DNA of 64,000 nucleotides from an uncultured delta proteobacterium (GCA_963782055.1 CAWAIF010000003.1:3040001-3104000), one strand, 5' to 3'; shown: positions 6,468-58,735, counted from the stretch's first letter. Numbers and translations are program-made. Notes: generated by a model not told the origin, from the letters alone.

Positions 6468-7490
6468 CTACTTCTTGGGATGCGCGGTGAAGAAGTCCAG
6501 CACTTCCTGCCCCCACACGAAGGCCGTCGGGGGCTTGCAGGCGAGCTGGTCCCACACGGTGCTGGTGGCCGGCGTCGCGCCCGGCACGCAGTGCCCGGCG
6601 TTCGCCGCGAGCGCGCCCTGCGGGTCGGTGGTGTAGTCCTCGGTGAAGAAGTCGAGGGTCGTGCCGTCGCCCGCGGTGTAGCGATCGTGCGTGTAGTGAC
6701 CGTCACCGGCGATGGTCTGCTTGCTGGAGAGCGCCCACGCGGCGACGACCGCGTCGCGCTCGGCGGTGGAGCACGCGTAGGGCACCAGGGCGTCCTTCTG
6801 CGCGGCGAGGTAGAGCAGCGGCAGCTCGCGCGAGGGCTCGCCCTGCGCCGTGAAGGGGCAGCTCCCGTTGAAGTTGCCGTTCGGACACTTGTCGCTGCCG
6901 GCGAGCGCGGGCGCTGCGGAGGCGAAGAGGTCGGCGTGCTCGCACACCAGCCGCCAGGTCATGTACCCGCCCTGCGAGAGGCCGGTCACGTGGACGCGCG
7001 CGGTGTCGGCGCCCCAGACCTTCACCACCTGCATGAGCGCGTCGTAGACGGCGGCGTCGTCGGAGTCCTCCCACATCGGCCCGTAGGGCGAGCGGTCAGC
7101 CGGCGCGGTGGGCTGCACGACGACGTAGCCGGCCGCGCCGCCCTTCGCGCGCAGGTCGGTCATCGCGTCCTCCAGGTCGGCGTTCATGTACAGGCCGTGG
7201 ATGTCCAAAATGACGCCGCAGGCCGTCGTCGCGCACGCCGCCGGCGCGCTCACCGTGACCGAGACGCCCGGGCACGCGTAGGTGTGCGTCCCGGTCTCCC
7301 TCGCGGTGATGCACGAGGCGGTCGAGCCGTCGACGCCGGACTCGCCGGTGGTGCCCCCGTCGGCGGTCTGCGACGCGTCCCCACCGGCCGAGCCGTCCGG
7401 CCCGCCCCCCGTCGCGGGGGAGCTCCCGCACGCGGCGAGGACGAGGGCGCAGGCGATCGGCGGCGAGGCGTACTTCAAGGCGGACAGCAT
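6468..7490 (-). CDS. Lipoprotein esterase, PHB-depolymerase/LpqC-like alpha/beta-hydrolase
   Basis: Lipobox LAAC; ILDIHG oxyanion region; [13 protein letters not shown] lipase box; [18 protein letters not shown]. Confidence 0.75.
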
Positions 7491-8090: not shown

Positions 8091-8651
8091 TCAGCGCCCG
8101 CCGGAGCGGCGCGCGCGCTTCTTGCCGCCCTCGACGCTCTTCTTCAGCTCGGCCAGCTCGCGCCGCAGCTCGGCGATGTCCGACTGCGACGAGGGCGCGT
8201 CCGGCACGGGGGAGGGAGGCGGCTGCGGGTTCCACGGCACCGGCGCGCGATCCACCCCGGACGACCCGAGCAGCAGCCGCGCGAGCGCGCCGCCCACGTC
8301 GAAGGGCATCTGCGCGAAGGGGCTCACGCTCGCCGCGCGCTGCTTGACGGCGAAGTACACCTCCAGCGCCCAGGTCATGTAGCGGCCGTAGAACTCGGCC
8401 AGCGCGTCGTCCCCCATCCGCACGAGCTGCAGCAGGAGCGGCACCGGCAGGAGGTGGGCGCGGTTGCCCTCGATGAGGAGCTGCACCAGCGTCGGCTGGG
8501 TGAGGTCGTCCTCCGTCTTGGCGTCCAGCACGCGCACGTCGCGGCCGCCGCGCACGCGCTCGGCGAGCTCCTCCATGGTGATGTACCGGCTCTCCTCCGT
8601 GTCGTAGAGGCGGCGGTTCGGGTATTTCTTGACGGTCAGAACGGGGCCCAC
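8091..8651 (-). CDS. phaR: PHA synthesis regulator PhaR
   Basis: VKKYPNRRLYDTEESRYIT..VLDAKTEDDLTQPTLVQ..LPVPLLLQLVR is the PhaR N-terminal DNA-binding domain; GTG at 8651 with an AAGGA RBS. Confidence 0.9.
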   Translation of the reverse strand: MGPVLTVKKYPNRRLYDTEESRYITMEELAERVRGGRDVRVLDAKTEDDLTQPTLVQLLIEGNRAHLLPVPLLLQLVRMGDDALAEFYGRYMTWALEVYFAVKQRAASVSPFAQMPFDVGGALARLLLGSSGVDRAPVPWNPQPPPSPVPDAPSSQSDIAELRRELAELKKSVEGGKKRARRSGGR

Positions 8652-8674
8652 GGCGGTCCTTGTAGCGCGCGGCT

Positions 8675-8711
8675 GGTTGCACTGCAACAAATCCTATGTT
8701 GCGCCGCACCA
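8675..8711. promoter_or_regulatory. Tandem putative PhaR operators in the divergent phaR/operon intergenic region
   Basis: GGTTGC-ACT-GCAACA (8675-8689) and TGTTGC-GCC-GCACCA (8697-8711), 22 bp apart. Confidence 0.75.
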
Positions 8712-8718
8712 ATTTTCC

Positions 8719-8747
8719 TTGACGACCTCCGGGGCCGCGGGTAGGTT
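8719..8747 (+). promoter_or_regulatory. Sigma70-type promoter of the PHA operon
   Basis: TTGACG (8719-8724)-N17-TAGGTT (8742-8747); GGAGGAG RBS before ATG 8796. Confidence 0.65.
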
Positions 8748-8795
8748 CCGCGTCGCCTCGCGGGCGGTGCCGCGTCCGGGGGCGGAGGAGTCGTC

Positions 8796-9746
8796 ATGCA
8801 ACACGCGCGGATGGGGGCCTTGGTCGCGGTGCTCGGCGCCGCATGCGTGGTCGCCGCGGGGTGCTCCAGCGCGCCGGCGGTCACGTGCAACGCGGGCGCG
8901 GACTGCGCGTCCGGCGTCTGCAACTCCGACGGCCGGTGCGCCCCGGTCACGAGCCCGGGCGACGACGCAGGCAACCCTGGCGACGACGGTGGCGCCGGGG
9001 ACGCCTCGCCGGGCGGCGACGCCGCGTCGGACGCGAAGGTCCCCGGCTGCACGCCCAACCAGGACGGCACCATCGAGGCCGCGGAGGTCCCGCTCCAGGC
9101 CGGGCTGCACGCGACCTTCCGCACCGCCACCAGCGCCACGGTGGACACCGCCGGCAAGGCGGGGCAGGGCGGCGCGCGCGACTGGGACTTCTCCGGCGCG
9201 CTGTCCGGCGATCAGGACGTCGGCGTGGATACCCTCTCCCCCGGTGGCGCGTGGTACGCGCAGAGCTTTTCCGGCGCGACGTACGCGGCCCGCCTCTCGT
9301 CGACCTCCGACCTGCTCGGCGTCTTTCGCGTGGGCGGCAACCAGCTCGCCCTGCAGGGCGTCGTCTCCCCGGCGAGCGGCGTGACCCAGACCAACGTGGC
9401 CTACCAGCCGGAGGCCGTGGCGATGCAGTTCCCCCTCAAGATGGGCAGCGCGTGGAACAGCACGTCCACCGTCTCCGGCACGGCGAACGGCGTCGCCGTC
9501 TACTACACCGAGGCGTACGACTCGCAGGTCGACGCCCACGGCAGCCTGAAGGTCCCCTTTGGCACCTTCCAGGTGCTGCGCGTGCGCACGGTGCTCACGC
9601 GCACGGTCGGCGTGGTGGCCACCGTCGCGCGCACCTTCGCCTTCGTCACCGAGTGCTTCGGCACCGTGGCCACCGTCACCTCGCAGCCCAACGAGCCCAA
9701 CGTGGAGTTCACGAGCGCCGCGGAGATCCAGCGGCTCGCGCCATGA
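8796..9746 (+). CDS. Beta-rich lipoprotein A (paralog of 12297-13145)
   Basis: Lipobox AAGC; Cys-rich N-terminus; C-terminal FVTECFGTVATVTSQPNE..FTSAAEIQRL; ATGA overlap with the next gene. Confidence 0.75.
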   Translation: MQHARMGALVAVLGAACVVAAGCSSAPAVTCNAGADCASGVCNSDGRCAPVTSPGDDAGNPGDDGGAGDASPGGDAASDAKVPGCTPNQDGTIEAAEVPLQAGLHATFRTATSATVDTAGKAGQGGARDWDFSGALSGDQDVGVDTLSPGGAWYAQSFSGATYAARLSSTSDLLGVFRVGGNQLALQGVVSPASGVTQTNVAYQPEAVAMQFPLKMGSAWNSTSTVSGTANGVAVYYTEAYDSQVDAHGSLKVPFGTFQVLRVRTVLTRTVGVVATVARTFAFVTECFGTVATVTSQPNEPNVEFTSAAEIQRLAP

Positions 9747-10747
9747 TCCGCGGCAGGCTCCTGCTCATCCTCATCATGCTGATGCCGCTCCTCGCAGGCT
9801 GCTTCTCCTTCCACACCGGCGCGATGCCCGGCGAACCGAAGGACGCCACCTTCGCGCGCGTCCACGGCGTGCGCGTCCGCTACGTCGACCGCGGCACCGG
9901 CCCCGCGGTCGTGCTCGTCCACGGCTTCGCCTCCTCGCTCGACGCGTGGAAGGACCTGATGCCGGTGCTGGAGGCGAAGGGCTTCCGCGTCATCGCGCTC
10001 GACCTCAAGGGCTTCGGCTGGACCGACAGGCCCCAGGGCGACTACTCCCCGGTGGCCCAGGCGCGCCTGGTCTTCGGGTTGCTCGACCAGCGGGGCGTCC
10101 GGCGCGCGGCGGTGGTCGCGCACTCCTGGGGCTCCTCGGTCGCCCTCGCTGCTGCACTGCAACATCCGGAGCGCATCACGCGCCTCGCCCTCTACGACGC
10201 GTGGGTCTACGAGGAGCAGCTCCCCACCTTCTTCCACTGGGCGCGCGCCGATGGCCTGGGCGAGATGATGTTCGCCCTCTGGTACAAGGAGCGCCCGGGC
10301 GACAAGATGGCGCAGGCCTTCTACGATCCGAGCCTCATCACCGAGGCGTTCGTCGAGCAGGTGGAGGCCGCCCTCGACCGGCCGGGCACCGTCGCCGCGG
10401 CGCTCGCGGCGGTGCGCGGGCAGCGCTACGCCGAGGTCCAGCGGCGCTACCACACCATCAAGCAGCCGACGCTGCTGCTCTGGGGGCGAGAGGACCGCGT
10501 CACCTCCCTGCGCTACGGCGAGCGGCTGGAGAGCGAGCTGCCCGACGCGCACCTCGTCGTCTACCCGCGCTGCGGCCACTTCCCGATGATCGAGGCGAAG
10601 GCGGCGTCGACGCGCGACGTGGTGGACTTCCTCGCCGCCGACCTGCCGGCGCGGACCGCCGCGGCGTCTCCGCCGCCCGCGCCTCCCCCGCCCGCGGCGA
10701 CGGGTGCGGCCGCCTCCCCGACCGCCGGCGCGACGGACGGCGAGTGA
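9743..10747 (+). CDS. Lipoprotein alpha/beta-fold hydrolase
   Basis: Lipobox LAGC; LVHGFASS, DLKGFGWT, AHSWG nucleophile, LLLWGRED, CGHFP. Confidence 0.9.
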   Translation: MIRGRLLLILIMLMPLLAGCFSFHTGAMPGEPKDATFARVHGVRVRYVDRGTGPAVVLVHGFASSLDAWKDLMPVLEAKGFRVIALDLKGFGWTDRPQGDYSPVAQARLVFGLLDQRGVRRAAVVAHSWGSSVALAAALQHPERITRLALYDAWVYEEQLPTFFHWARADGLGEMMFALWYKERPGDKMAQAFYDPSLITEAFVEQVEAALDRPGTVAAALAAVRGQRYAEVQRRYHTIKQPTLLLWGREDRVTSLRYGERLESELPDAHLVVYPRCGHFPMIEAKAASTRDVVDFLAADLPARTAAASPPPAPPPPAATGAAASPTAGATDGE

Positions 10748-12297
10748 AGCGCGCGGTCGTGCTCCTCGGCGCCATGGTGGCGATCGCCTCCGCGATCGTC
10801 CCGGCGGAGGCGCGCGCCACCGGCTTCACCGACATCGGCCAGGACATCACCCCCCGCGACAAGTTCGAGGCGAAGCTGGACGGCTACCTGCGCGCGCGCG
10901 GGGAGGGCCTCTACAACCTGGACCTGGACCGGGGGCTGCTGCCCGACGGTCAGCCGCTGTTCCCGGTGCCCCTCGGCAACCCGAAGGGGCAGTGGCTCAC
11001 CCACGCCGACATGCGCCTCCGCACCGACCTCTCGGTGTACGCGCCGGGCGGCGGCGTCGCGGTGAAGGTGCGGCTGGACACGCTGGACAACGAGGCGCTC
11101 GGCTCCATGCCGGAGGGCCTGCCGTACGCCTCGCTCACGCAGCGGCCGGAGGGCGCCCTCTTCTCCCTGCGCCGCGCGTACGGCGAGGCGCTCACGCCCT
11201 TCGGCCTCATCGCCGTCGGCCGGATGGGCAACGACTGGGGCCTGGGCATGTACGAGAACGGAGGCGACTGCATCGACTGCGACGCCGGCGACTCGGTCGA
11301 CCGCGTGGCCTTCCTCACGCCGCTCTTCGGTCACGTCTTCGCGGTGGCCTACGACTACTCCGCGACGCTCGCGCTGGCGCCGCGCGCCGACAACCGCACC
11401 ATCTCCATCGCGCCCTTCTCCAACGTGCGCTCGGTCACCTTCGCCGGGCTGCACTTCGAGACCGACCTGGCGCGGGAGCGGCGCCGGAAGGCGGGCAAGA
11501 CGACGCTGGAGTACGGGCTGCTCGGGTCGTACCGCTGGCAGGACGGCGACGTGCCGGCCGCGTACCTGCCCACCCCGGCGAACGGCCCGGTGGCCCTGGA
11601 CCCCGCGCAGGTCATGGGGCGCGGCGCGAAGGGCTGGGTGGTCGATGGATGGGCGCGCCTGACGCACCCTGCGTTTCACGTGGCCGCGGAGGCGGCGTAC
11701 GCGGGCGGCCAGGTCGACGACGCGTCGCTCGTCCCCGGCGTCCTCTCGCGGCGGCCCATCCGGTCGACCCAGCTCGGCCTCGCGCTGGAGTCGGAGGTGG
11801 GCGGGCCGACCTCGCCCTTCGGCGTCGGCCTGGACGCCGGCTACGCCTCCGGCGACCCGGGCGCGACCCTCGGCGCGGTGCCGGTGCCGCCCCCCGGCGA
11901 TCGCATCGACTCCTTCCGCTTCCACCCCGACTATCACATCGACCGCATCCTCTTCCGGGAGATCGTGGGCACCGTCACCGGCGCCTTCTACCTCCGGCCG
12001 CACGCGCGCGCGCGGCTCTTCAAGGTCGCGACCGGCGAGCTGCGCGCCGACGTGGCGGTCGTCGCCTCCTTCGCCGCCGCGGACGACTGGTCCCCCAGCG
12101 GTGACCGCGGCCTGGGCGTGGAGGTGGACCCCGGCCTCACCTACCACAGCCGCGACGGCTTCTTCGTCGCCCTGGACTACGGCGTGCTCTTCCCGCTCTC
12201 CGGCATGGATAACCCGGCCGCCGGGCTGAAGGCGCAGCTCGCCGAGTCCATCCGCCTGCGCCTCGCCTTCCTCTTCGGCGGGGGGAGGAGCTCCTGA
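10744..12297 (+). CDS. Outer-membrane beta-barrel protein, TIGR04551-like (family name from recall)
   Basis: GTG at 10744; signal peptide; LDGYLRARG, GRMGNDWGLGM..NGGDCIDCD, FRFHPDYHIDRILF; alternating beta-strand pattern ending LRLAFLF. Confidence 0.7.
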   Translation: MKRAVVLLGAMVAIASAIVPAEARATGFTDIGQDITPRDKFEAKLDGYLRARGEGLYNLDLDRGLLPDGQPLFPVPLGNPKGQWLTHADMRLRTDLSVYAPGGGVAVKVRLDTLDNEALGSMPEGLPYASLTQRPEGALFSLRRAYGEALTPFGLIAVGRMGNDWGLGMYENGGDCIDCDAGDSVDRVAFLTPLFGHVFAVAYDYSATLALAPRADNRTISIAPFSNVRSVTFAGLHFETDLARERRRKAGKTTLEYGLLGSYRWQDGDVPAAYLPTPANGPVALDPAQVMGRGAKGWVVDGWARLTHPAFHVAAEAAYAGGQVDDASLVPGVLSRRPIRSTQLGLALESEVGGPTSPFGVGLDAGYASGDPGATLGAVPVPPPGDRIDSFRFHPDYHIDRILFREIVGTVTGAFYLRPHARARLFKVATGELRADVAVVASFAAADDWSPSGDRGLGVEVDPGLTYHSRDGFFVALDYGVLFPLSGMDNPAAGLKAQLAESIRLRLAFLFGGGRSS

Positions 12298-13145
12298 TGT
12301 TGCATCGCACCATTGCGCTCGCGCTGCTCGCCCTGGCTGGCGTCGCCGTCGGCTGCGGGGACAACCGCACGCCGCAGCCGACACACCCCGACTACGACGC
12401 CGGCGGCCTGCCGCAGCTCTCCTGCATCCCCAACCTGGACGGCCGCATCGACGCCGACGAGCTCGGCCCGGCGCTCGGCGTGCCGGTGCACTACCTGGTG
12501 TCGCCCTCCGGCAAGACGCGCGCGGTGGACCTCGCGGGGAGCGTCGACGCCCAGGGGCACACGGTGTGGGACTTCGGCGCGGACTACGCCGACAATCAGG
12601 TGGCGACGATCGAGGCCTCCTCGGTCTCCGGCAAGTGGTACGCGGGCAGCTTCCCCGGGGCGACCTTCGTCGCGCCGGTGGACGCGGGCGACACCCTCGA
12701 GGGCGCCTACACCTACTCGCAGGCGGGGGTCACCCTGCGCGGCATCGCCTCGCGCGATCCCGACGGCCCCGGCGGCAAGACGCTCCTCGTCTACGACCAG
12801 CCGGTCACCGTCTACCGCTTCCCCATCGTGGTCGGCGACTCCTACGTCTCGGTGGGCAACGTCACCGGCGGCACGCTACGAGGTCTGCCCTACGCCGGCA
12901 AGGACACCTACCAGGTCTCGGTGGACGGCTCCGGCGAGGTGACCCTCCACGACTACGACTTCACCCAGGCGCTGCGCGTGCGCACCACCGCGACGGTCGA
13001 GCCCTCCGCGGGCGCGGCCGTCGTCACGCGGCAGACGTCCTTCCTCTTCGAGTGCTTCGGCGAGATCGTCCGCGCGACGAGCCAGCCGGGGGAGACGAGC
13101 GACGACTTCACCACCGCCGCCGAGCTGCGGCGGCTGGGGCAGTGA
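12297..13145 (+). CDS. Beta-rich lipoprotein B (paralog of 8796-9746)
   Basis: Lipobox [17 protein letters not shown] vs [44 protein letters not shown]. Confidence 0.75.
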
Positions 13146-13168
13146 CCAGGCAGTGGACGGAGGCAGCC

Positions 13169-13441
13169 ATGTTCGATCAGTTCAAGAAGGGGTTCGACGC
13201 GTGGGAGATCGCCACGGCCAAGGTCGTGGAGGCGTGGATGAAGAGCCCGCTGGTGCTCAAGCCGTCCGGCGCCATGCTGACGAGCCTGATGCGCATGAAG
13301 GCGGCGAGCGACAGCGCCGCGGCGATGTGGTGGGCCTCGCTCGGCCTGCCCACCAAGCGCGATCAGGAGCGCACGCTCCACGCGCTGCACAAGCTGGAGA
13401 GCCGGCTCAACAATCTCGAGGACAAGCTCGAGGACAGGTGA
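13169..13441 (+). CDS. phaE: Small PhaE-like PHA synthase subunit (90 aa)
   Basis: [35 protein letters not shown] resembles the PhaE C-terminal LxLPTR...coiled-coil motif; same operon as class III phaC. Confidence 0.65.
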
Positions 13442-13467
13442 CCCGCGCGCGGGTGGGAGAAGAGAAG

Positions 13468-15171
13468 ATGGACGTCTCCAGGTACATGGATCTCCAGATC
13501 GCGCCGCGCGCGGTCTTCGACGCGCTCGAGGAGCGCAAGGACCGGCCGCGCTTCTTCCTGCGCGACGCCGGAGGCAGGTGGTCGCCGGTCACGTGGCAGG
13601 ACTTCGCCGACCAGGTGCGCGACGCCGCGCTCTTGCTGGCGAGCGCCGGGCTGAAGAGCGGCGACCGCGCCGCGGTCTTCGCGCCCAACCGGGTGGAGTG
13701 GGCCGCCGCCGCGCTCGGCATCCAGGCCGCCGGCGGCGTGATGGTGCCCGTCTATGCGGCGAGCACCGCCGAGCAGCTCGCCTACGTGCTCGGCCACTCC
13801 GACGCGCGCGTCCTCTTCGTCGACACGCCGGCGCTCCTCTCCCGCGTGCTGGAGGCGTGGCCGGGGCTGCCGTCGCTGGAGCGCGTGGTCGTGCTGTCCG
13901 ACGGCGTGGACCCGAAGCGCGTCGCGCAGAAGCTCCGGGAGGCGGGCAAGCCCGCGCCCGCCGACGCGCAGATCGAGGAGCGCGTGCTCGGCTGGTCCGC
14001 CGCGCGCGCCATCGGCGCCGCGCGCCACGCCGCCGACCCCGGCGAGCTCGCGCGCCGGATGGACGCGGTGACGCTCGATCAGATCGGCCTGATGCTCTAC
14101 ACGAGCGGCACCACCGGCAACCCGAAGGGCGTGCCGCTGTCGCACGCCAACGTGGCGCACAACGGTCGGGACTGGCTGACGTGCAACGCGCCGCTCCTGG
14201 AGGAGGGCGCGGTGGACGTGCTCTGGCTGCCCATGAGCCACATCTTCGGCTTCGGAGAGATGTGTCTGGGCAACACGCTGGGGTGGGTCTCCTACATGAG
14301 CGACCCCCGCGAGGTGCTCGATCGCCTGCCGGAGGTGCGGCCGCAGGTCTTCATGAGCGTGCCCTCGCACTGGGAGAAGATCGCCTCCGGCGCGCTCGGC
14401 GAGCCCGACGCGAGCAAGCGCAAGGCCGCCATCACCGAGGCGACCGGCGGCCGCCTGCGCTTCTGCCTCTCCGGCGGCGCGGGCCTCAAGCGCCAGGTGA
14501 AGGAGGTCTTCCACGAGAGCGGCGTGCTCATCATCGAGGGCTACGGGCTGACCGAGACGTCCCCCACGCTCACCCTCAACCGCCCCGACGCCTACCGCTT
14601 CGACAGCGTGGGCAAGCCGCTCCCCAGCGTGGAGCTGAAGCTCGCCGAGGACGGGGAGATCCTCGCCCGCGGCCCCAACGTCTTCGGCGGGTACCACAAG
14701 GACGAGGCGGCGACGCGCGAGATCTTCACCGCCGACGGCTGGCTGAAGACGGGCGACGTCGGCCGGTGGACGGAGGACGGCTTTTTGCAGATCGTCGACC
14801 GCAAGAAGGACATCCTGGTCACCGCCGGCGGCAAGAACGTGCCGCCCGCCAACATCGAGATGCGCTTCGCCGGGGACCCGCTCATCGCTCACGTGGTGGT
14901 CTACGGCGACGGGGAGAAGTACCTGGTCGCCGGCCTCTGGCCGAACGAGGACGCCGCCCGCGCGATGAGCGAGGACGAGGTGAAGAAGGCCCTCGGCGAG
15001 CGGGTGGAGCGCGTCAACCGCGAGCTGCCCAGCTACGAGACCATCAAGCGCTTCGCCGTCGTGCGCACGCCGCTCAGCGTGGAGGCGGGCACGCTGACCG
15101 CGTCGCTCAAGGTGCGCCGCAAGAAGATCTACGAGACCTTCCGCGACGTCTTCCGCGGCCTGTACGCGTGA
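13468..15171 (+). CDS. Long-chain fatty acid--CoA ligase (AMP-binding, FadD15-like)
   Basis: [57 protein letters not shown]. Confidence 0.92.
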
Positions 15172-15176
15172 GCGCG

Positions 15177-16241
15177 ATGGAAGCGCGGCGCGGCATCAAG
15201 CGGCTCTTCAACCTGGCGGCGCTCCCGGCGCGCGGCAAGCCGCTCGTCGGGCGGACGCCGGCGGACGTCGTCTTCTCGGAGAACAAGTGGCGCCTGCTCC
15301 GCTACCGCGCGCGGGCGGAGGGGCTCGCCCACCCGCTGCCGGTGCTGCTGGTGCCCTCCCTCATCAACCGCCACTACGTCCTCGACCTCATGCCGGGCAA
15401 GAGCTTCGTGCAATCCCTGGTCGCGCAGGGCTACGACGTCTACTGCATCGACTGGGGCACGCCGGGGGACGAGGACCGCTACGTCACCTTCGACGACGTG
15501 TGCGACGGCGTCATCGGCCGCGCCATCCGCCGGGCGGCGCGCACCTCCGGCGCGCCCAAGGTGCACCTGCTCGGCTACTGCCTGGGCGGGACGCTCACCG
15601 CCATCCATGCTGCGGTGCACGAGGAGCGCATCGCCTCGATGGTCGTGCTCGCGGCGCCGGTGCGCTTCGACCAGGACGGCCTGCTGGAGGCCTGGACGCG
15701 CACCCCCACCTTCGACGTGCGCGCGCTCGTGCGCGGGGCGGGCAACGTGCCGTGGCAGCTCATGCAGGGCGCCTTCCAGATGCTGCGCCCGACGCTCGGC
15801 CTGTCGAAGGCGGTGCACATGGTGGACCGCGCGTGGGACGACGAGTTCCTGGACGGCTTCTTCGCGCTGGAGACGTGGGGCAACGACAACGTGTCCTTCC
15901 CCGGTGAGTGCTACGTCCGCTACATCGAGGAGCTGTACCGCGGCGACGCGCTGGCGAAGGGGACCTTCACCCTGAGCGGCAAGCCGGCGCGGCTGGAGAA
16001 CCTCACCTGCCCGCTGCTGGTGGTGTCCTTCCAGCACGACAACATCGTGCCGGAGGGCGCGGCGGCGGCGCTGGTGGAGATGGCCGGGTCGAAGGACAAG
16101 CGGCACCTGCGACTGCCCGGTGGGCACGTGGGGGCGGTGGTGTCGCGGTCGGCGAGCCAGCGGCTCTGGCCGGTGATCGAGGGGTTCTTCGCGGAGCACG
16201 AGGGGGCGCGGGGTTGCGTCCCGAACGCCACCTCCTCATGA
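15177..16241 (+). CDS. phaC: Class III-type PHA synthase subunit PhaC
   Basis: GRTPADVV, PVLLVPSLINRHYVLDL, IDWG, GYCLGG (catalytic Cys), HDNIVP (Asp), GGHVG (His); about 354 aa; alternative GTG at 15168. Confidence 0.88.
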   Translation: MEARRGIKRLFNLAALPARGKPLVGRTPADVVFSENKWRLLRYRARAEGLAHPLPVLLVPSLINRHYVLDLMPGKSFVQSLVAQGYDVYCIDWGTPGDEDRYVTFDDVCDGVIGRAIRRAARTSGAPKVHLLGYCLGGTLTAIHAAVHEERIASMVVLAAPVRFDQDGLLEAWTRTPTFDVRALVRGAGNVPWQLMQGAFQMLRPTLGLSKAVHMVDRAWDDEFLDGFFALETWGNDNVSFPGECYVRYIEELYRGDALAKGTFTLSGKPARLENLTCPLLVVSFQHDNIVPEGAAAALVEMAGSKDKRHLRLPGGHVGAVVSRSASQRLWPVIEGFFAEHEGARGCVPNATSS

Positions 16242-16248
16242 TGCCCGG

Positions 16249-17526
16249 GTGCTGCTCCGCGTCGTGCTGGTGATCCCTCTCTGCGCCTGCCTCGCGGGTT
16301 GCCCGAAGCATTCGCTGGCTGCCGCGAAGACGGACGGCGGCGGCCTCGCAGACGCGGGGATGGACGCGCCGACGGGGTCCGCACGAGCCGCCGCATCGAG
16401 CGCAGAGAGCTCGCCCCGGCCGAAGGCCCCGACCGTTGCGAAGGCCCCGCTGTCGCCGGCCGAGCGCAAGGCCGTGCTCGCGGCGCTCGGCGCCGGCCGC
16501 AAGAAGTCACTGGCGAAGGACTACGAGGGGGCGCTCGTCGCCTACGACCGCGCGCTCGCGATCGCGCCCGACGACGCGACGGTGCTGGCCGAGGTCGGCT
16601 GGGCCGCCCTTCAATCGGGTGACCTGGCGCGCGCCGAGGACGCCAACAGACGCGCCCTCCTCCACGCGCTCGACCCGAAGCTGCGCGCGCAGATCCTCTA
16701 CAACGCGGGTCGCGTCGCCGAGGCGAAGTCCGACCCGGCGGCGGCGCGGACGGCCTACGCCGCGTCGCTCGCGCTGCGCGAGAACGCGGCGGTCCGGCGG
16801 CGCCTCGCGGCCGTGTCGGCGTCGAAGACCGGGTCGGGCGAGGCATCGCCGTCCCTTCCGTGTGCGGCCGGGGCCGCCACGTCGAAGGCGCTCTGCGACT
16901 GCTTGATGGCGAAAAAGGATGATCTCGAGGCGATGACCCGCCTTCCGGGGGACGCGCCGACGTGCACCACCGTCCCCGCGTCCCTCGGGACCCCGCGGCT
17001 CGCGGTGATTCGCTGGGGCGCAGCGAGCGGCGGCGAGAGCCGCTACCTCCTCGCGGCGCGCGATGGCTCGACGCTCCGACCCGTCGCCGATCTCGGCAGG
17101 GACTACGAGCCGGGTGTGTTCGGCGTCACCGACACGGCGACGATCGAGGGCGGCGTGACGCGCACGCTCGGCGCCCGCACGGTGCATGTCGTCCACTCCG
17201 CGCAGCACGACGTCGACACCAACATGGCCGGCCTGGAGGCGTGCTTCCACGACGTCGAGCGCGAGACGGTCTGCGCGCTCGCGGGCGCCGGCGGCACGAC
17301 GCGCTGCCAGACGGTCGACGTGAAGACGACGTCCGGCTGCGGGCCGGGCGTCGTCGACCCCGACCTCGACCCCGACACGAAGGCCGCCCTCGACGAGAGG
17401 AAGAAGGACTGGGGCACCAAGACCTCCGGGCGCGCGTGGTCGCTCGACGCCGACGGGGCCCTCGTGGTCAAGGAGGCCGGAGCTGGAGGCAAGACCGTGT
17501 CGAAGACCCCGCTCTTCGATCGGTAG
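16249..17526 (+). CDS. TPR-containing lipoprotein
   Basis: Lipobox LAGC; TPRs ALVAYDRALAIAPDD, ILYNAGRVAE; Cys-rich C-terminal domain. Confidence 0.7.
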   Translation: MLLRVVLVIPLCACLAGCPKHSLAAAKTDGGGLADAGMDAPTGSARAAASSAESSPRPKAPTVAKAPLSPAERKAVLAALGAGRKKSLAKDYEGALVAYDRALAIAPDDATVLAEVGWAALQSGDLARAEDANRRALLHALDPKLRAQILYNAGRVAEAKSDPAAARTAYAASLALRENAAVRRRLAAVSASKTGSGEASPSLPCAAGAATSKALCDCLMAKKDDLEAMTRLPGDAPTCTTVPASLGTPRLAVIRWGAASGGESRYLLAARDGSTLRPVADLGRDYEPGVFGVTDTATIEGGVTRTLGARTVHVVHSAQHDVDTNMAGLEACFHDVERETVCALAGAGGTTRCQTVDVKTTSGCGPGVVDPDLDPDTKAALDERKKDWGTKTSGRAWSLDADGALVVKEAGAGGKTVSKTPLFDR

Positions 17527-17620
17527 CGTGGACACGACGCGCTGCCCGATACGCGTCGGCTCGTTGCCCGCGCCCCGCTCCTCTCTCCACCAGAGAGAGG
17601 AGCGCCCGGGGGCGTGAGCC

Positions 17621-17869
17621 TCAGCCTGCCTTCTTCATCGCCTCCATCGTCAGCTTGCGCCACTCGGCGGCGAGCTGGCCGGCGTAGGCGAAGGACTCGC
17701 GGGTGAGCCTGGAGACCTCGTCGACCATGGTCGCGGCCTGCTCCACGCCCTGGCCCTCCAGCCTGGCCCACTCCTCGGTGGCTGCCTGGAAGCGAGTCAT
17801 GTTGTCCTCGGTCGCCTTCTTCCAGAAGTCGATCCACTGTTGCGGTGCAGCAAAGACCTGGTTGGACAT
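17621..17869 (-). CDS. Small phasin-like protein (82 aa)
   Basis: Strong AAAAGGAGG RBS; amphipathic helical sequence; PHA locus; putative PhaR boxes in its promoter and 5' coding region. Confidence 0.65.
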   Translation of the reverse strand: MSNQVFAAPQQWIDFWKKATEDNMTRFQAATEEWARLEGQGVEQAATMVDEVSRLTRESFAYAGQLAAEWRKLTMEAMKKAG

Positions 17870-17891
17870 GGTGTCCTCCTTTTCTCGCCGG

Positions 17892-17941
17892 AAGATAAGC
17901 TCGGCGGCGGAGGCGTCAAGGGATTTTGTTGCGTTGCAACA
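17892..17941 (-). promoter_or_regulatory. Promoter and putative PhaR box of the phasin-like gene
   Basis: Box TGTTGC-GTT-GCAACA (17927-17941); minus-strand TTGACG (17919-17914)-N16-TATCTT (17897-17892). Confidence 0.7.
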
Positions 17942-17962
17942 TGGGCGGCGCGGGGGGCGGGG

Positions 17963-19747: not shown

Positions 19748-20512
19748 TCAACCTTGCGGCTTCGGCTGCCCCCACCGGGCGGGCCAGTACGGCGGCTCGC
19801 GGTCGGGCACCTCGGTGGAGCCAGCGCGCTTGCGGCCGCCCTGGATCATCTCGAACACGCGCGTCGCGCCCACCGGCTTGCCGTTGCGTCCGACCACGCC
19901 CATGTCGCGGAGCGCCTCGACAATCTCGCGGATCTTGCGGCCGCTCTGGCGCATGGCGCGCACCACCGCGATGACGTCCTGCTCGCGCTCGTCGGGGACG
20001 AGCGTCTTCTTGTCCTCGCCCAGGCGGTAGCCCCAGGGGCAGCGGCCGGCGGCCTCCCCGCGGGCGCGCTTCATCGCCACCGCGGCGCGGCTGCGCAGGC
20101 GCGCGGCGGCGCGCTCGAACTCGGCGAAGGCGCCGACAAGCTTCGCCGCTTCCTCGGGCGTCTCGCGATCGCCTCGAGCCCACTGCAGCCGCGCGCCGTG
20201 CCTGGCCGCGAGGTGCGCGATGAGCGCGAGGGTCACCGGCGTCCGCGCCAGCCTGTCCCGGGAGGCGACCACCAGCACCGGCGCCTGCTTCGTCTTGAGG
20301 GCGAGCACCGCGGCGAGCAGTCCCTTGCGCTCGTCGACGGGCGCCGCGTCGTCCTGCCCGTCGTCCAGGTGCCACGCCACGATGCGCGCGCCGGTCGTCC
20401 TGGCCCAGCCGCGGATCGCCTCCCGCTGAGCCTCGGAGGAGGGGGAGCGCTCGCCCTTTCCGGTCCTCAGGTAGGCGATGGCCGGGGTGGCGGTGAGCTC
20501 GGGCGCGGGCAC
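19748..20512 (-). CDS. Serine recombinase (resolvase) family protein with degenerate active site
   Basis: AYLRTG in place of YxRVS; VASRDRLAR; AFAEFER; GRCPWGYRL..LVPDEREQ (recombinase-domain start). Confidence 0.8.
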   Translation of the reverse strand: MPAPELTATPAIAYLRTGKGERSPSSEAQREAIRGWARTTGARIVAWHLDDGQDDAAPVDERKGLLAAVLALKTKQAPVLVVASRDRLARTPVTLALIAHLAARHGARLQWARGDRETPEEAAKLVGAFAEFERAAARLRSRAAVAMKRARGEAAGRCPWGYRLGEDKKTLVPDEREQDVIAVVRAMRQSGRKIREIVEALRDMGVVGRNGKPVGATRVFEMIQGGRKRAGSTEVPDREPPYWPARWGQPKPQG

Positions 20513-26390: not shown

Positions 26391-26400
26391 CCCGCGCGGG

Positions 26401-28365
26401 TCAGCCGATGCCGGCCAGGTTCGCGCGGGCGAGCGGGCGCAGCGCGACCTCCGGGAGCAGCTCGGCGAAGCTCACCACCGTCAGCTCGGGCATCTCGGCG
26501 TCCACCAGCTTGCGCACGAAGCGCCGGATGTCCGGCTGCGTCAGCACCACCGCCGCGCCCCGCTCGCTCTCCGCGCGCGCCTCGGTCACCGCGCGTCGCA
26601 CCGAGGCGATGACGTCGCGCGCCGCCGCCGGCGCCAGCGTGAGGAAGGCGCCGTTGGGCGTGCGGGTGATCGCGCGCCGTACCGTGTCCTCGATGGTCGG
26701 GTCGATGAGGATGACGCCCAGGTGGTCCGAGCCGCGCGTCAGCTTGAAGGTGATGGCGCGCCGGAGCTGCGCGCGCACGAACTCGGCGAGGTTGAGCGGG
26801 TCCTTCTCGCTCCCGGCGACGACCGAGAGCGCCTCCAGGATGGCGCGCAGATCGCGCACGCTCACGCGCTCCTCCACCAGCCGGCGAAGCACGTCGGCCA
26901 GCAGCGTGAGGGAGACCGGCTTGGGCACGACGTTGCGCACGACGGCCGGAGTGTACTGCTCCAGCTCGTCCAGCAGCCGCTGCGTCTCGTTGAGGCCGAG
27001 GAAGTCCGCGGCGCGCGCGCGCAGGAGCCCCGCGACGTGGTCGGCGACGACGCCGGGCACCTCCTCGTCGGGCACCTCGTCGGGGATGGGCAGGAGCTTC
27101 GCCGGGACCTCGTGCAGCGAGACGACGACGTGGCGCGCGGGCAGGCCGCTCACCGCGCGCACGCGCGGGGCGGGCAGGGGGACGCCCAGCTCGCCGAAGA
27201 CGCTCTCGCGCAGGGTGAGCACGCGCCCCCGGATCCCCGGGGCCTCGCCCTCGCTGGTGCTCACCGGCTCCAGCAGGGCGACCAGGTCCTCGCTCACCTC
27301 CACGCTCCACGGCACCACCACCGGGACGAACTGCGGGCCGCGCCGCGTCTGCGGCTGGGGTGTCGGCTCGGTGGCGGCGCGCTGCGCCTCCCGCGCGAGC
27401 TGCTTCGTCCGGCTGCGCGCGATGAGGAAGAGGATGACGGCGAGGAGCAGGAAGGGCGCCGTGGGCAGCCCGGGGACGATCGCCAGGCCCAGCACGAAGA
27501 AGGAGGCGACGCGGATGGCCTTGGGGGTACCGAAGAGCTGGCGCGAGAGCTCCTCGCCGAGCGGGGTGTCCGGCTCTTCGCTCGCCGTGCGCGTCACGAG
27601 CACCCCCGCGGCCGTGGAGAGCACCAGCGCGGGGATCTGCGAGACCAGGCCGTCGCCGATGGTCAGCAGGCCGTAGCGCTTGAGGGCGAAGACGGCGGAG
27701 AGGTCCTTCTGCCCGACGCCGATGGCGAGGCCGGCCAGGATGTTGATGACGGTGATGACGAGCGACGCGATGACGTCGCCCTTGACGAACTTCATCGCCC
27801 CGTCCATCGACCCGTAGAACTGGCTCTCGCGAGCGAGCAGGCGGCGGCGGCGGCGCGCCTCGTTGCCGTCGATGGAGCCGCTGCGCAGCTCTGCGTCGAT
27901 GGCCATCTGCTTGCCGGGCATGGCGTCCAGCACGAAGCGCGCCCCCACCTCGGCCACCCGCTCGCCGCCCTTGGCGATGACGACGAACTGGATGACGGTG
28001 AGCACCAAGAAGACGACGGCGCCCACGACGTAGTTGCCCCGCACCACGAAGTTGCCGAACGCGCGGATGACCTCCCCGGCGTTGGCCTGCAGGAGGATGA
28101 GCCGGCACGATGAGACGTTCAGCCCCAGCCGGAAGAGGGTGGTGAGCAGCAGGACCGTGGGGAAGGTCGCGATGGCGATGGCGTCCGGCACGTAGAGAAC
28201 GACCAGCAGGATGGCGACCGACATGGAGAGGTTGGTCGCGATGAGAATGTCCAGCAGCCACGTGGGCAGCGGCACGATCATCATGGCCACGACGGCGATG
28301 ACGAGGACCGCCAGGGCCACGTCCGCCATTCCGAGACCCTTGCCCCCGCGGGAGAGGAGCGCCAT
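26401..28365 (-). CDS. flhA: Type III export gate protein FlhA/SctV (FHIPEP family)
   Basis: FPTVLLLTTLFRLGLNV, IQFVVIAKGGERVAEVGARFVLDAMPGKQMAIDAEL, ESQFYGSMDGAMKFVKGDVIA, TIGDGLVSQIP; flagellar vs injectisome type unresolved. Confidence 0.93.
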   Translation of the reverse strand: MALLSRGGKGLGMADVALAVLVIAVVAMMIVPLPTWLLDILIATNLSMSVAILLVVLYVPDAIAIATFPTVLLLTTLFRLGLNVSSCRLILLQANAGEVIRAFGNFVVRGNYVVGAVVFLVLTVIQFVVIAKGGERVAEVGARFVLDAMPGKQMAIDAELRSGSIDGNEARRRRRLLARESQFYGSMDGAMKFVKGDVIASLVITVINILAGLAIGVGQKDLSAVFALKRYGLLTIGDGLVSQIPALVLSTAAGVLVTRTASEEPDTPLGEELSRQLFGTPKAIRVASFFVLGLAIVPGLPTAPFLLLAVILFLIARSRTKQLAREAQRAATEPTPQPQTRRGPQFVPVVVPWSVEVSEDLVALLEPVSTSEGEAPGIRGRVLTLRESVFGELGVPLPAPRVRAVSGLPARHVVVSLHEVPAKLLPIPDEVPDEEVPGVVADHVAGLLRARAADFLGLNETQRLLDELEQYTPAVVRNVVPKPVSLTLLADVLRRLVEERVSVRDLRAILEALSVVAGSEKDPLNLAEFVRAQLRRAITFKLTRGSDHLGVILIDPTIEDTVRRAITRTPNGAFLTLAPAAARDVIASVRRAVTEARAESERGAAVVLTQPDIRRFVRKLVDAEMPELTVVSFAELLPEVALRPLARANLAGIG

Positions 28366-28473
28366 CCTGCTGGATTTCGCCACGGCCGACCAAGGTAGCT
28401 GGGCTTGGGTACGGAGCCAAGCTCGGGTGAAAGTCACGAGCTCGGGGCGTTCTTGGCTATACTGGACCTTCGC

Positions 28474-46364: not shown

Positions 46365-47294
46365 TCAGCGCACCGCGGCGCGGGACGCGGCGAGCGCCGC
46401 CGTCCAGTCGGCGGCGCACCTGAGCGGGTCGTCCCCGGGTCGCAGGCCGGCGCAGGCGAGCGTGTCGCGGCGCGGGGCGAGGAGCATGTACTCGCCACGC
46501 GTCACGAAGGGGTAGGTGCCGCGCCAGCCCAGCTCGATCACGGCCTGGTCGTGCTGGGCCCGCTCGCGCACGTCGCTCGCGTGCAGCTCGGCCAGCTTGG
46601 CGGCGATGCCGGCGCGCGTTTGCGGGTCGTCCGCCAGCGCATAGGCGCGCTCCAGCCCGACGATGGCGGCGTTGCGCTGCCCCTGCCGGTCGAGCAGGTA
46701 GGCCGCGCTGATGGAGTGCGACGGGTCGTCGCCCAGCTCCACGGCCCGCGACAGGGCGTGGGCCCCGTCCGCGCGCCAGCGCTCCGCCTCCGCCTTGGAG
46801 GAGAGATACGTCGGCGCCATGAACGCCAGAAACTGCCCGTAGTGCTCCCAGACCTCGTAGTCGTCCGGTCGCTCGCGTGTGCCCCGCTCCAGGATGCGCC
46901 GCGCGGTCCGCACGTCCTGCTCGGTCCCGACAGGGTAGTGATAGACCAGCAGCGTGTCGGCGTAGTGGTAGACCGGCGCGTAATCCGGCTCCAGCTCCAG
47001 GATGGCGTCCATGTAGCGAGACGCGTCCGGGAAGGTGCGCTTCTCCGCCCAGTGCATGCCGTACTCCACCCGCAGCTTGGCCCAGAGCATGTCCACCGTC
47101 GCGGCGTCGTAGCCCAGCGTGGCGAGCTTGAGCTCGGCGGGCGGAGGGAAGAGGTAGACGTCCTGCCGCTCCTTCGTCTCGTGCAGCGTCGTCGCGAGGC
47201 CCGGCTGCGTCGCCGCCACCACCGCCCCGCCAGTCAGCAGGATGAGCACCAGCGCCGGCACCGCGCTCGGCTCGTGCCTCGCGGCGGCGGTCAT
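46365..47294 (-). CDS. Pilin-locus TPR-like accessory protein (possibly PilG/XapA-like)
   Basis: N-terminal hydrophobic segment; LGYDAATVDMLW, ILELEPDY, LERGTRERPDDY; ATGA-coupled to the upstream pilin. Confidence 0.6.
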   Translation of the reverse strand: MTAAARHEPSAVPALVLILLTGGAVVAATQPGLATTLHETKERQDVYLFPPPAELKLATLGYDAATVDMLWAKLRVEYGMHWAEKRTFPDASRYMDAILELEPDYAPVYHYADTLLVYHYPVGTEQDVRTARRILERGTRERPDDYEVWEHYGQFLAFMAPTYLSSKAEAERWRADGAHALSRAVELGDDPSHSISAAYLLDRQGQRNAAIVGLERAYALADDPQTRAGIAAKLAELHASDVRERAQHDQAVIELGWRGTYPFVTRGEYMLLAPRRDTLACAGLRPGDDPLRCAADWTAALAASRAAVR

Positions 47295-47827
47295 TCGAGC
47301 TCCGCCTCCACCCGCATGCCGGGCAGCACGCGCGCGCCCCTGGCGTCGTCCACGCCGTCGATCGCGAAGCTGCTCGTCGTGCCGTCGCCGTCCAGATCCC
47401 CGTGCGCGTGCGCCGAGAAGTGAGCCTGCGTGGCGTCGTGGCTCGCGTCCAGCTCGAAGGAGAAGGCGTGGGGTACGCCGTCCGGTGCAGGCTTGAACCC
47501 GAGCGCCTTCCATGTCGGGTGTTCCCAGAGCGCCGGCGGGTCCGCCACCGGCTTGCCACGCGGCGGCACGGCGGGAGTGAGCGGGGCGGAGCCTGGGAAC
47601 GCCTCGTTCGGCCCCTTGCCCTGCGCGCCCGCGACCGCGGCCTCCCCGATGCGCTTCAGGCCATCCACCGGCTCCGAGAGTCGCGACGCGTGCAGGTTGC
47701 GCACGAAGGCGGGCACCGAGACCGCCAGCAGCGAGCCCACGAGGGCGAAGCCGATGGCCGCCTCCAGCGCCGTCAGGCCTCGCTGCCGGCCGCGCCGGCG
47801 CAGGACGACGATGCGCGCCCTCCGCAT
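47291..47827 (-). CDS. Type IV pilin-like protein (minor)
   Basis: Class III signal RG|LTALE plus hydrophobic helix; AHGDLDGDG motif. Confidence 0.8.
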   Translation of the reverse strand: MRRARIVVLRRRGRQRGLTALEAAIGFALVGSLLAVSVPAFVRNLHASRLSEPVDGLKRIGEAAVAGAQGKGPNEAFPGSAPLTPAVPPRGKPVADPPALWEHPTWKALGFKPAPDGVPHAFSFELDASHDATQAHFSAHAHGDLDGDGTTSSFAIDGVDDARGARVLPGMRVEAELE

Positions 47828-48381
47828 CACTCCTCCGGGTCGATGCGCTCGATCGCCGGGTCCACCTTCGCGGTGAGGGTGGAGTCCGCCGAAACGTGCG
47901 CGCGGAAGGTCGACGTCCTGCCGTTTCCGTCCAGATCGCCGTGGGCCTCGGCCGTGCCCTGCGCGGACGGCCCGCTCCCGCGCGACTCGAACGAGTAAGC
48001 GTAGTACTGCGGCGTGGAGATGGAGAAGCGCATGTCCAGCCACGGAGAGACCGACCAGTCCGCCACGGCGCTCTGGTAACGCTTCCCCCGCACGTCGGTG
48101 AGGTCCGCGGGGACGCTCGCGCGCGAGGACGGCGGGAAGTGCCGCATCGCCTTGGCGGCGTCCGGCTTGGTGCCCGCCGGCTGCAGGCTGTCCGACTCGT
48201 CGTAGTAGACGGCGGCGGCCTGCGCGATGCCCGTCGTCGAGCCCACCGCCTCCGCCGTCTTGCTGTGGCGTACGTAGCGGGCCAGCCCGTACATCGCGAG
48301 CGCCGCGAGCAGGGCGGTGAGGCCGATAAGGTTCATCAGCTCGAGCATGCTGAAGCCTCGCGCGCGGGAGAGCGCGGGCAT
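47827..48381 (-). CDS. Type IV pilin-like protein (minor)
   Basis: RG|FSMLE; SKTAEA; PQYYAY; AHGDLDGNG; ends DPEE. Confidence 0.85.
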   Translation of the reverse strand: MPALSRARGFSMLELMNLIGLTALLAALAMYGLARYVRHSKTAEAVGSTTGIAQAAAVYYDESDSLQPAGTKPDAAKAMRHFPPSSRASVPADLTDVRGKRYQSAVADWSVSPWLDMRFSISTPQYYAYSFESRGSGPSAQGTAEAHGDLDGNGRTSTFRAHVSADSTLTAKVDPAIERIDPEE

Positions 48382-48478
48382 GTTAGGACGGTACGCAGGC
48401 GCCGGCACGGAAGCCACGAAGCTACCATAGCGCGGGCCCCCGTCGCCAAGAAGCGCGGCCAGGCCCGCGCCGAGCCCG

Positions 48479-50683
<2,205 letters not shown>

Positions 50684-50705
50684 TCGGCGACGGGCGAGCG
50701 CGATC

Positions 50706-55833: not shown

Positions 55834-55845
55834 CACGTCACGCAC

Positions 55846-55890
55846 AAAAGCACGACGCGCCGCGGGCCGAAGCCCGCAGCGCGCCGAGTG
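55846..55890 (-). terminator. Hairpin with short U tract downstream of pilA
   Basis: Minus strand gcgcgctgcgggc-TTCG-gcccgcggcgcgt then cgtgcttttg. Confidence 0.65.
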
Positions 55891-55914
55891 GTGTACTTCG
55901 CAGAGCGAGCGCGC

Positions 55915-56499: not shown

Positions 56500-56564
56500 C
56501 CTGATCTCCTTTCGAGGTCCACACTCTTCGCGACACATCCCGACACACTCGAGATACGTCACAT

Positions 56565-57122: not shown

Positions 57123-57135
57123 CGGTCGAGGCACA

Positions 57136-57151
57136 TGCAGCGGTCGTGCCA
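57136..57151 (-). promoter_or_regulatory. Sigma54 promoter of the pilin genes
   Basis: TGGCACGACCGCTGCA, near-consensus -24/-12. Confidence 0.85.
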
Positions 57152-57204
57152 GAGGCATCTTCCCCCGGATTTCGCGGCAGGTTGGGGCTCCGAGGGGCTC
57201 CGAC

Positions 57205-57241
57205 TGACAATTTCCGTCACCCCGCCCAACAAAGATCGTCA
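57205..57241. promoter_or_regulatory. Putative PilR enhancer sites
   Basis: TGAC-N7-GTCA (57205-57219) and a degenerate CAAC-N7-GTCA 22 bp away (57227-57241), about 80-115 bp upstream of the sigma54 start. Confidence 0.5.
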
Positions 57242-57250
57242 CTCGCCGCA

Positions 57251-58735
<1,485 letters not shown>

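Follow-up and report, generated by a model that had tools for sequence, protein, structure and literature searches.

We analyzed a 64,000-nucleotide stretch of DNA from an uncultured delta proteobacterium (GCA_963782055.1 CAWAIF010000003.1:3040001-3104000; from here on, the window) and focused on positions 8091 to 16241, where an operon for polyhydroxyalkanoate (PHA) synthesis opens with genes for four envelope proteins. These genes, which encode two lipoproteins, a lipoprotein hydrolase, and an outer-membrane β-barrel, form a module that is real, widespread, twice assembled, and apparently undescribed. We consider it likely that the locus is an import line, controlled by the PHA-responsive repressor PhaR, that would feed acyl-coenzyme A (acyl-CoA) and PHA synthesis from external esters. 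Computation shows the individual parts and that their linkage is conserved, as well as the fold of the barrel, the operators, and a modeled contact between the barrel and lipoprotein B. The newness lies in the envelope module, while the pha genes are of known types. Relatives with 78-79% identity carry the label Polyangiaceae, based on which the genome probably belongs to the Myxococcota.

Based on the list of open reading frames (ORFs) and the sequence, seven co-directional genes span 8796-16241 on the plus strand and are divergent from phaR (8091-8651, minus strand), for which the longest ORF extends to 8690 and a GTG behind AAGGA is the probable start. The seven genes encode, in this order, lipoprotein A (lipA, 8796-9746), a lipoprotein α/β serine hydrolase (9743-10747), the outer-membrane β-barrel (10744-12297), lipoprotein B (lipB, 12297-13145), a 90-amino acid (aa) mini-PhaE (13169-13441), an acyl-CoA ligase (13468-15171), and the 354-aa PHA synthase PhaC (15177-16241; alternative GTG start at 15168). 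All eight genes named in a previous sequence-only reading of this DNA were recovered in the ORF list and the family scans, as were the overlaps it described, i.e., ATGA at 9743-9746, GTGA at 10744-10747, and TGATG at 12295-12299. The later junctions are gaps of 23 and 26 nucleotides (nt) and then a possible GTGA overlap before phaC. That reading also stated that phaA and phaB are absent from the window, and among the scanned window genes (37 proteins, with a few others judged from sequence only) there was indeed no gene for a thiolase or a PhaB-like protein.

We surveyed 301 genomes of the phylum for the module. Lipoprotein B matched 76 of these, and 73 were kept after three weak single matches (G008, G271, and G296) had been dropped; the barrel profile matched 76 genomes at E 1e-100, i.e., 72 among the 73 as well as four weaker barrel-only matches. 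Loci were fetched from 60 of the 73 genomes, which represent many families. In this sample, in which several gene misses lie at contig ends, we identified the barrel gene in 60/60 loci, two lipoprotein domains in 58, phaC in 57, the ligase gene in 54, phaR in 49, and the mini-PhaE gene in 46, while the hydrolase gene passed a strict filter in 58 and was visible in the other 2. The presence of the barrel gene in all 60 loci and of phaC in 57, across many families, indicates that the gene order is conserved far beyond chance. The order hydrolase-barrel-lipB is fixed, and the ligase gene, whose slot is occupied by two ligase subfamilies, and phaC lie downstream, upstream, or divergent. A second set, which consists of the best 80 of 539 confirmed species-genome matches, partly overlaps the first, and is biased to close relatives, contained phaC in 69/80 loci; among the 38 loci with a length of at least 20 kb, 35 contained it. 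Thus, the linkage of the envelope genes to phaEC and a ligase gene, on which the sequence-only reading depended, is kept across the phylum and through rearrangements. At two loci without a detected phaC, the module lies by genes for a thiolase, a flavin oxidoreductase, and a TetR protein (L101:6484-15718) or between genes for a symporter, a reductase, and a ligase (L100:2573-15218); these modules may serve catabolism alone.

The survey also identified a second version of the module, here referred to as type II, as opposed to the type I module of the window. In genome G204, the same phaR, mini-PhaE, ligase, and phaC genes occur without lipoprotein B, and are followed in the operon by genes for another lipoprotein, a protein of 531 aa whose homologues have an alginate-export domain in their annotation, a lipoprotein hydrolase, and a symporter. 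The type II module was present in 39/301 genomes; its 39 loci contained genes for the hydrolase (38 loci), the lipoprotein (33), the ligase (28), a surface hydrolase (28), PhaC (26), PhaR (24), and the symporter (5). At L099:104-11197 and L184-L228, this module consists of a small lipoprotein, an alginate-export-like barrel, and a lipoprotein hydrolase, often with a surface lipase and a symporter. Bacteroidales and Paludibacter also have homologues of the type II barrel. A common origin of the two types is not supported by profile comparison: the barrel profiles aligned weakly at the C-terminus (E 0.019), the lipoprotein profiles did not align, and in a quick tree the type I and type II hydrolases formed separate supported clades. 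Both types occurred together in only 2 of the 110 module genomes. phaC (E 1e-45) was detected in 105/110 genomes with either module versus 15/191 with neither; the genomes are kin, and this and the other co-occurrence counts are not independent and serve as description rather than as a test. Two of the five phaC-less module genomes show a weaker phaC beside the module (L066 and L222). That two barely related modules share the same logic and the same neighbors supports the suggested import line.

In the AlphaFold2 model (predicted local distance difference test [pLDDT] of 94.3), the barrel has 18 long strands and no plug. A second-look structure search matched it to AlgE (Z 26.0; root mean square deviation 4.1 Å over 356 residues), the Campylobacter MOMP (Z 24.9), and OccK/OccD (Z of ~21-23), at ~10-13% identity to AlgE/Occ-type channels. 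Its neighbor in the ESM Atlas is the alginate-export family (0.97). On the pore side, as assigned from hydropathy, 16 Arg/Lys and 11 Asp/Glu residues are conserved, and this polar, arginine-rich pore suits soluble acids and not a long-chain lipid. We detected no Pfam match (neither PF03349 nor Alginate_exp nor a TonB receptor), and the barrel profile had no match among the sequences of solved structures. Of the families that the sequence-only reading had proposed for 10744-12297, TIGR04551 showed full-length similarity, with 277.8 bits and, thus, below the cut-off of 300. Databases label barrels of the operon type "TIGR04551 family protein"; we rejected the possibility that the operon barrel is a canonical TIGR04551 protein because it scores below the cut-off and belongs to a separate paralogous clade. 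Accordingly, a function for the TIGR04551 family is not supported. The member of that family in this genome that passes the cut-off (532.2 bits, 709 aa; L091:7255-9381) lies elsewhere in an unrelated context, upstream of queA, with genes for a GT2 glycosyltransferase and a sigma-54 response regulator on either side. A FadL-type barrel for long-chain lipids was rejected on the basis of the 18 strands, the polar pore, and the lack of a PF03349 match; the six FadL-family (PF03349) matches in the genome lie elsewhere and do not include the operon barrel. At ~5.11 Mb in this genome (G000:C3; L102:4598-7296), a third TIGR04551/alginate-export-like barrel gene is directly followed by a gene for a lipoprotein of no known family, and barrel-plus-lipoprotein pairs may be a wider theme.

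Lipoproteins A and B are paralogues (33% identity; hhalign 100%). Lipoprotein A consists of a lipobox, the Cys of which aligned in 40/40 homologues, a Cys-rich segment, a linker, and then the same domain as in lipoprotein B; at four loci (L079, L082, L083, and L084) it is a single 886-982-aa chain with three tandem lipoprotein domains. Neither protein matched a family in Pfam or NCBIfam, and Pfam had none for 47 homologues of lipoprotein B. Lipoprotein B has two invariant Cys residues (24 and 234), and its model (pLDDT 94.6) is a soluble, all-β, barrel-like fold. Its best structural match was BDI_3050 (Z 9.3), and all others, including DUF1849 (Z 7.8), YmcC (7.5), LmcA (6.2), and LolA (5.4), scored below 8, within background (Foldseek E 0.01); a sequence search of solved structures gave at best E 0.06. 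The complex modeling proposed with the sequence-only reading supports docking of lipoprotein B on the barrel, with a score of 0.62 versus 0.00 for the best control. The mark for this score was reached by 116/157 solved and 2/215 mismatched pairs, and these counts apply only roughly to the alignments used. The runs agreed in at least 93% of contacts, and the pLDDT of the partner was at least 84. The contacts on the barrel involve residues 246-264, 303-312, and 357, i.e., the long loops that follow strands 9, 11, and 13. The long loops of outer-membrane barrels are extracellular by standard topology and, with sidedness assigned on this basis, lipoprotein B is predicted to cap the outer loops of the barrel. 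Interface conservation (0.57 versus 0.63 overall for the barrel, 0.59 versus 0.52 overall for lipoprotein B) adds little to the complex model.

The operon hydrolase (PF00561, 119.8 bits) contains a LAGC lipobox, an HGF motif, an AHSWG nucleophile, and Asp and His motifs; the catalytic residues are invariant in 45 sequences, and the type I hydrolases form their own supported clade in the quick tree. It scores below the cut-offs for PHA depolymerases (i_nPHAscl, 69.3 versus 300; TIGR02240, 36.3 versus 250.6), and we infer that it is a candidate for cutting PHA oligomers or other esters.

Genes that co-occur with the module bear on the direction of transport. One clade of solute:sodium symporters was identified in 58/301 genomes, of which 57 were module-positive (57/110 module genomes versus 1/191 others), including two module genomes (G256 and G268) with no phaC match. 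A symporter or major facilitator superfamily (MFS) carrier gene is located in 15/60 and 20/80 type I loci, with one of 12 symporter matches being only 26% identical. Among the 80 type I loci, a profile search flagged 13 depolymerase-like ORFs, and 11 of the 12 tested passed the NCBIfam cut-off for extracellular short-chain-length PHA (scl-PHA) depolymerases; several of these genes lie directly after phaC, and their products have C-terminal sorting tails. In the type II set, extracellular scl-PHA depolymerase genes directly precede the barrel gene at L206 and L207 (2/2 tested passed), and two more ORFs passed the broader TIGR01840. A surface hydrolase with a lipase box is encoded in 28/39 type II and 5/60 type I loci and mostly has a MYXO-CTERM-like tail (one tail scored 19.7 versus a cut-off of 20), a tag that, according to the available part of PMC11980579, directs proteins to the cell surface. 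Unannotated secreted hydrolases of ~590 aa with an xHSKGG lipase box and a MYXO-CTERM-like tail (L192:11609-13465, L204:5869-7674, and L085:4413-6287) form a family that weakly resembles Bacillus lipases and PhaZ7, and are candidate new depolymerases. Import, as suggested in the sequence-only reading, thus gains independent support from the symporter association, the surface-anchored hydrolases, and the predicted outer-face lid, and the OccK/OccD import channels have the same fold as the barrel. The available parts of two papers on predators report that Bradymonas sediminis accumulates PHA during predation (PMC7460792) and that Bdellovibrio hydrolyzes prey PHA to monomers and oligomers (PMC4834554).

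The pha genes of the operon could be assigned by family and motif. The best NCBIfam family for PhaC is TIGR01836 (class III; 265.6 bits, below the cut-off of 365.3), its Cys-Asp-His triad is intact (GYCLGG at 133, FQHD at 285, and GGHVG at 315), and it aligns with the catalytic domains of solved PhaC structures (E 8e-35). Judged on sequence, PhaC is a class III-type PHA synthase with polymerization as its predicted activity. The mini-PhaE resembles the C-terminal part of PhaE (PF09712, E 2e-4; TIGR01834, E 6e-5; both under the cut-off) and covers only positions 232-318 of the full-length PhaE model of ~310-320 aa. PhaR matches PF07879 (PHB_acc_N) with 85.4 bits, over the cut-off, and TIGR01848 with 89.3 bits, below the cut-off of 109. 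The ligase (PF00501 and PF23562; AMP-binding, 241 bits) has intact catalytic motifs and FadD11/PRK06187 as its best, under-cut-off NCBIfam families, and is by family of the predicted long-chain type; a search of solved-structure sequences gave nothing at E 1e-45. Elsewhere in this genome, a 965-aa protein in which a PhaC-like hydrolase domain is fused to an AMP-binding domain (G000:C3 ~1.772-1.775 Mb; L093:4071-6965) echoes the ligase-synthase pairing of the operon. At L033, L081, and L086-L090, PhaC measures 426-540 aa and is extended at its N-terminus by a long segment that may be a fused PhaE or phasin.

Conserved operators support control of the operon by PhaR, as previously suggested. Upstream of phaR, a TGCRNYGCA core palindrome was present in 99/114 regions, versus a mean of 6.5 and a maximum of 12 in 50 simulations. 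In the available part of PMC12542648, a YGCRNYGCR-type PhaR motif matching this core is given for Sinorhizobium, and the Bradyrhizobium PhaR core GCN3GC in the available part of PMC10888616 also matches the palindrome. In the window, two putative operators of this type are located in the divergent promoter region at 8674-8690 (score 21.8; among the top 10 of the 714 core matches in the genome) and at 8696-8712 (score 23.6; 84 nt upstream of lipA), and a third at 17926-17942 (score 27.7; rank 1/714) lies upstream of a gene for an 82-aa protein (17621-17869, minus strand). When the region of the window was left out in building the matrix, 6 of the 10 best sites in the genome fell in 8674-17942. 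Based on synteny, the 82-aa protein is probably a phasin: in relatives, its gene heads a phaC2-reductase operon that adjoins phaR, and Pfam gave no firm match to its family (Phasin_2 in 1 of 16 members, E 0.011). In 38/59 and 48/69 type I loci, the 600 bp that precede the first module gene contained a core site, compared to 13% of random windows; by the same measure, only 6/38 type II loci had a site, the type II module usually being located mid-operon. The role of the sites at 8674 and 8696 could be limited to autoregulation of phaR; PhaR-type sites directly ahead of the module at loci where phaR is not adjacent (L082-L084, L099, L185, and L187) argue against this possibility. The palindromes at 10149, 12297, and 17837 sit inside coding sequence. 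Among them, 12297-12313 is the third best in the genome, overlaps the lipB start codon, and is possibly an internal operator or a chance occurrence. A high-scoring PhaR-like site at L231, inside coding sequence, was treated as chance.

In the import line that we consider likely, a surface enzyme would cleave a polyester or another ester outside the cell, releasing soluble fragments that are acidic; this enzyme would be a MYXO-CTERM-tailed depolymerase or lipase where present and otherwise an enzyme of the prey or the community or the operon hydrolase. Lipoproteins A and B at the outer face would bind or gate the fragments, which would cross the arginine-lined 18-strand channel and be cut to monomers by the lipoprotein hydrolase. 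A sodium symporter or MFS carrier would move the monomers over the inner membrane, the ligase would form the CoA thioester, and PhaEC would polymerize the product, directly in the case of an (R)-3-hydroxy acid and otherwise following β-oxidation and the action of a FabG-type reductase. Granules would titrate PhaR, and the line would be switched on at the onset of storage. A FabG-like reductase gene adjoins 23/60 type I loci, and the genome analyzed here encodes elsewhere a FabG-like reductase orthologue, five thiolases, and two MaoC dehydratases, has no second phaC, and contains no PhaB or 3-hydroxybutyrate dehydrogenase over the cut-off. A bypass of the cytoplasmic monomer supply by this route is therefore tentative. 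PHA oligomers or hydroxy acids are a plausible but tentative substrate for such a line, and other lipids or esters a less probable one, with the former favored because of the polar pore, the link to PhaR, and the depolymerases.

Several observations weigh against this reading, in addition to the kinship of the genomes that underlies the co-occurrence counts. The genome analyzed here lacks the symporter clade, an MFS2 orthologue, and the surface lipase and, therefore, the initial breakdown and the inner-membrane passage have no linked gene; 53 of the 110 module genomes similarly lack the symporter clade. Extracellular PHA depolymerase genes were found in 0/60 sampled type I loci, and a strong extracellular PHA depolymerase was identified in at least 10/301 genomes (a lower bound, with 8 candidates scored per genome), of which 7 were module-positive. 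The surface hydrolase matches Bacillus-type lipases (E 3e-12) better than it does PhaZ7 (E 1e-3) and, together with the long-chain family of the ligase, fits lipids rather than polyhydroxybutyrate. Finally, the best structural match of the barrel is the exporter AlgE (Z 26.0 versus ~23 for OccK), its interface with lipoprotein B shows no higher conservation than the protein as a whole, and lipoprotein B weakly resembles YmcC/GfcB, proteins of a capsule locus.

These structural similarities raise the possibility of export, in which the barrel and the lipoproteins would bring a polyester or oligoester made by PhaC to the cell surface, much as polysaccharide is exported by AlgE-type systems, and the hydrolase would trim the chains. 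The AlgE fold match, the alginate-export neighbor in the ESM Atlas, and the weak similarity of lipoprotein B to YmcC (Z 7.5) fit such a system, and a synthase, a hydrolase, and a barrel mirror synthase-dependent secretion. However, no ABC, RND, or membrane-bound synthase family recurs in the mapped loci, and the carriers found are of the symporter and MFS types. Moreover, PhaC is of the soluble type, and the phasin-like and phaR genes that accompany it are characteristic of granules in the cytoplasm. In the complex model, lipoprotein B binds to the presumed outer loops rather than the periplasmic turns, and at loci where phaC was not found (L071/L100 and L057/L101), the module is still accompanied by a ligase or thiolase gene. 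We therefore regard export as improbable. 

Overflow and recapture, or kin sharing, would use the same channel for hydroxy acids or oligomers that derive from a cell's own granules or from lysed kin and are exchanged in the swarm, rather than harvested from prey. Control by PhaR would make the module respond to the state of the cell's own granules, depolymerase genes of Sinorhizobium are repressed by PhaR according to the available part of PMC12542648, and a gene for a PhaZ-like paralogue adjoins several loci; by contrast, surface-tailed extracellular-type depolymerases and lipases encoded in the same operons suit an insoluble external substrate, and this scenario appears unlikely. It is more doubtful still that the four genes remodel or traffic outer-membrane lipid and lie beside pha genes only through a shared response to acyl-CoA surplus. 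Lipoprotein B weakly resembles lipid-carrier and envelope folds (DUF1849, LmcA, and LolA), genes for FabH-like, MBOAT, and GDSL proteins occur in a few loci, and type II homologues are found among Bacteroidales proteins. Yet, the module is missing from 191/301 genomes, which does not fit a general housekeeping function. Moreover, two modules that are unrelated have converged on the same neighbors, the pore is polar, and the symporter tracks the module.

The locus shares features with several known systems. As in class III pha operons, there is a PhaC with an intact triad, a PhaE-like subunit, and PhaR with TGCRNYGCA operators; here, however, PhaE has 90 aa, the ligase gene lies between phaE and phaC, the operon lacks phaA and phaB and begins with four envelope genes, and there are often two PhaC paralogues. 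The SusCD polysaccharide utilization loci of Bacteroidota encode a surface hydrolase, a lipoprotein lid on the outer loops of the barrel, and a TonB-dependent 22-strand barrel. The logic of a surface hydrolase, a lipoprotein lid, a barrel, a second hydrolase, an inner-membrane carrier, and a local regulator would be shared, the lid being a predicted feature of the module, while the module has neither the TonB-dependent 22-strand barrel and plug nor the SusD fold, uses esterases rather than glycosidases, and is coupled to synthesis of a storage polymer. AlgE and the OccD/OccK (OprD-family) carboxylate channels have the same 18-strand fold and a basic pore; different from AlgE export, no glycosyltransferase or conserved tetratricopeptide repeat (TPR) scaffold recurs in the 60 loci, and the barrel has dedicated lipoprotein partners. 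FadL-FadD uptake similarly links an outer-membrane channel genetically to an acyl-CoA ligase, but FadL is a 14-strand barrel with a path that is hydrophobic, whereas the barrel described here has 18 strands and a polar pore. Hydrolysis of prey PHA by a predator would be shared with Bdellovibrio bacteriovorus (Bd3709 and Bd2637), for which the available part of the account describes only depolymerases and no channel, lid, symporter, or re-polymerization operon (PMC4834554).

Other genes in the window lie around the operon. A gene for a secreted lipoprotein esterase (6468-7490, minus strand) is weakly similar to those for extracellular PHA depolymerases (NF050058, 65.9 bits, below the cut-off of 150); the genome holds three such genes, this one is not kept at the equivalent position in relatives, and its membership in the system is uncertain. 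A TPR lipoprotein gene at 16249 is not conserved among related loci. The region 47294-58735 contains two pilin-like genes, a gene for a PilR-type sigma-54 regulator, and several genes for large membrane and TPR proteins, and probably represents a type IV pilin cluster that includes genes for modification. At ~26400-28400 (minus strand), a FlhA/SctV-like type III export gate sequence was recognized from the translation only, and a lone resolvase-domain gene (19748-20512, minus strand) is located between rimK and a gene for an acidic protein.

In the open-access literature, judged by titles and the opening of abstracts, we found no paper that ties a pha operon to an envelope machine, none on the outer-membrane passage of PHA breakdown products, and nothing on TIGR04551, myxobacterial class III synthases, or oligomer transport. 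PHA genes in Myxococcota are recorded in bulk in PMC11821767, and the module is not mentioned in the available parts of that paper or of those on Bradymonas (PMC7460792) and Bdellovibrio (PMC4834554). The locus provides a candidate for such a channel and a new family of lipoproteins for which a partner is predicted. The convergence is two-fold and extends over 110/301 sampled genomes, i.e., about one-third carry one version of the module. One cultured carrier is Labilithrix luteola DSM 27648 (L130), in which the gene for an extracellular depolymerase over the cut-off lies directly after phaC, and the idea is thus directly testable. If true, it would explain how predators fill storage granules during feeding, and myxobacteria would join bioplastic turnover in soils and sludge and provide parts for PHA recycling. 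More speculatively, the Myxococcota may have twice built a "polyester utilization locus," in which a TonB-independent, lid-gated channel with the AlgE fold, a symporter, and esterases at the surface and in the envelope would together harvest PHA from prey or dead cells for re-polymerization into the granules of the predator. If so, myxobacteria would be major unrecognized recyclers of natural and industrial PHA.

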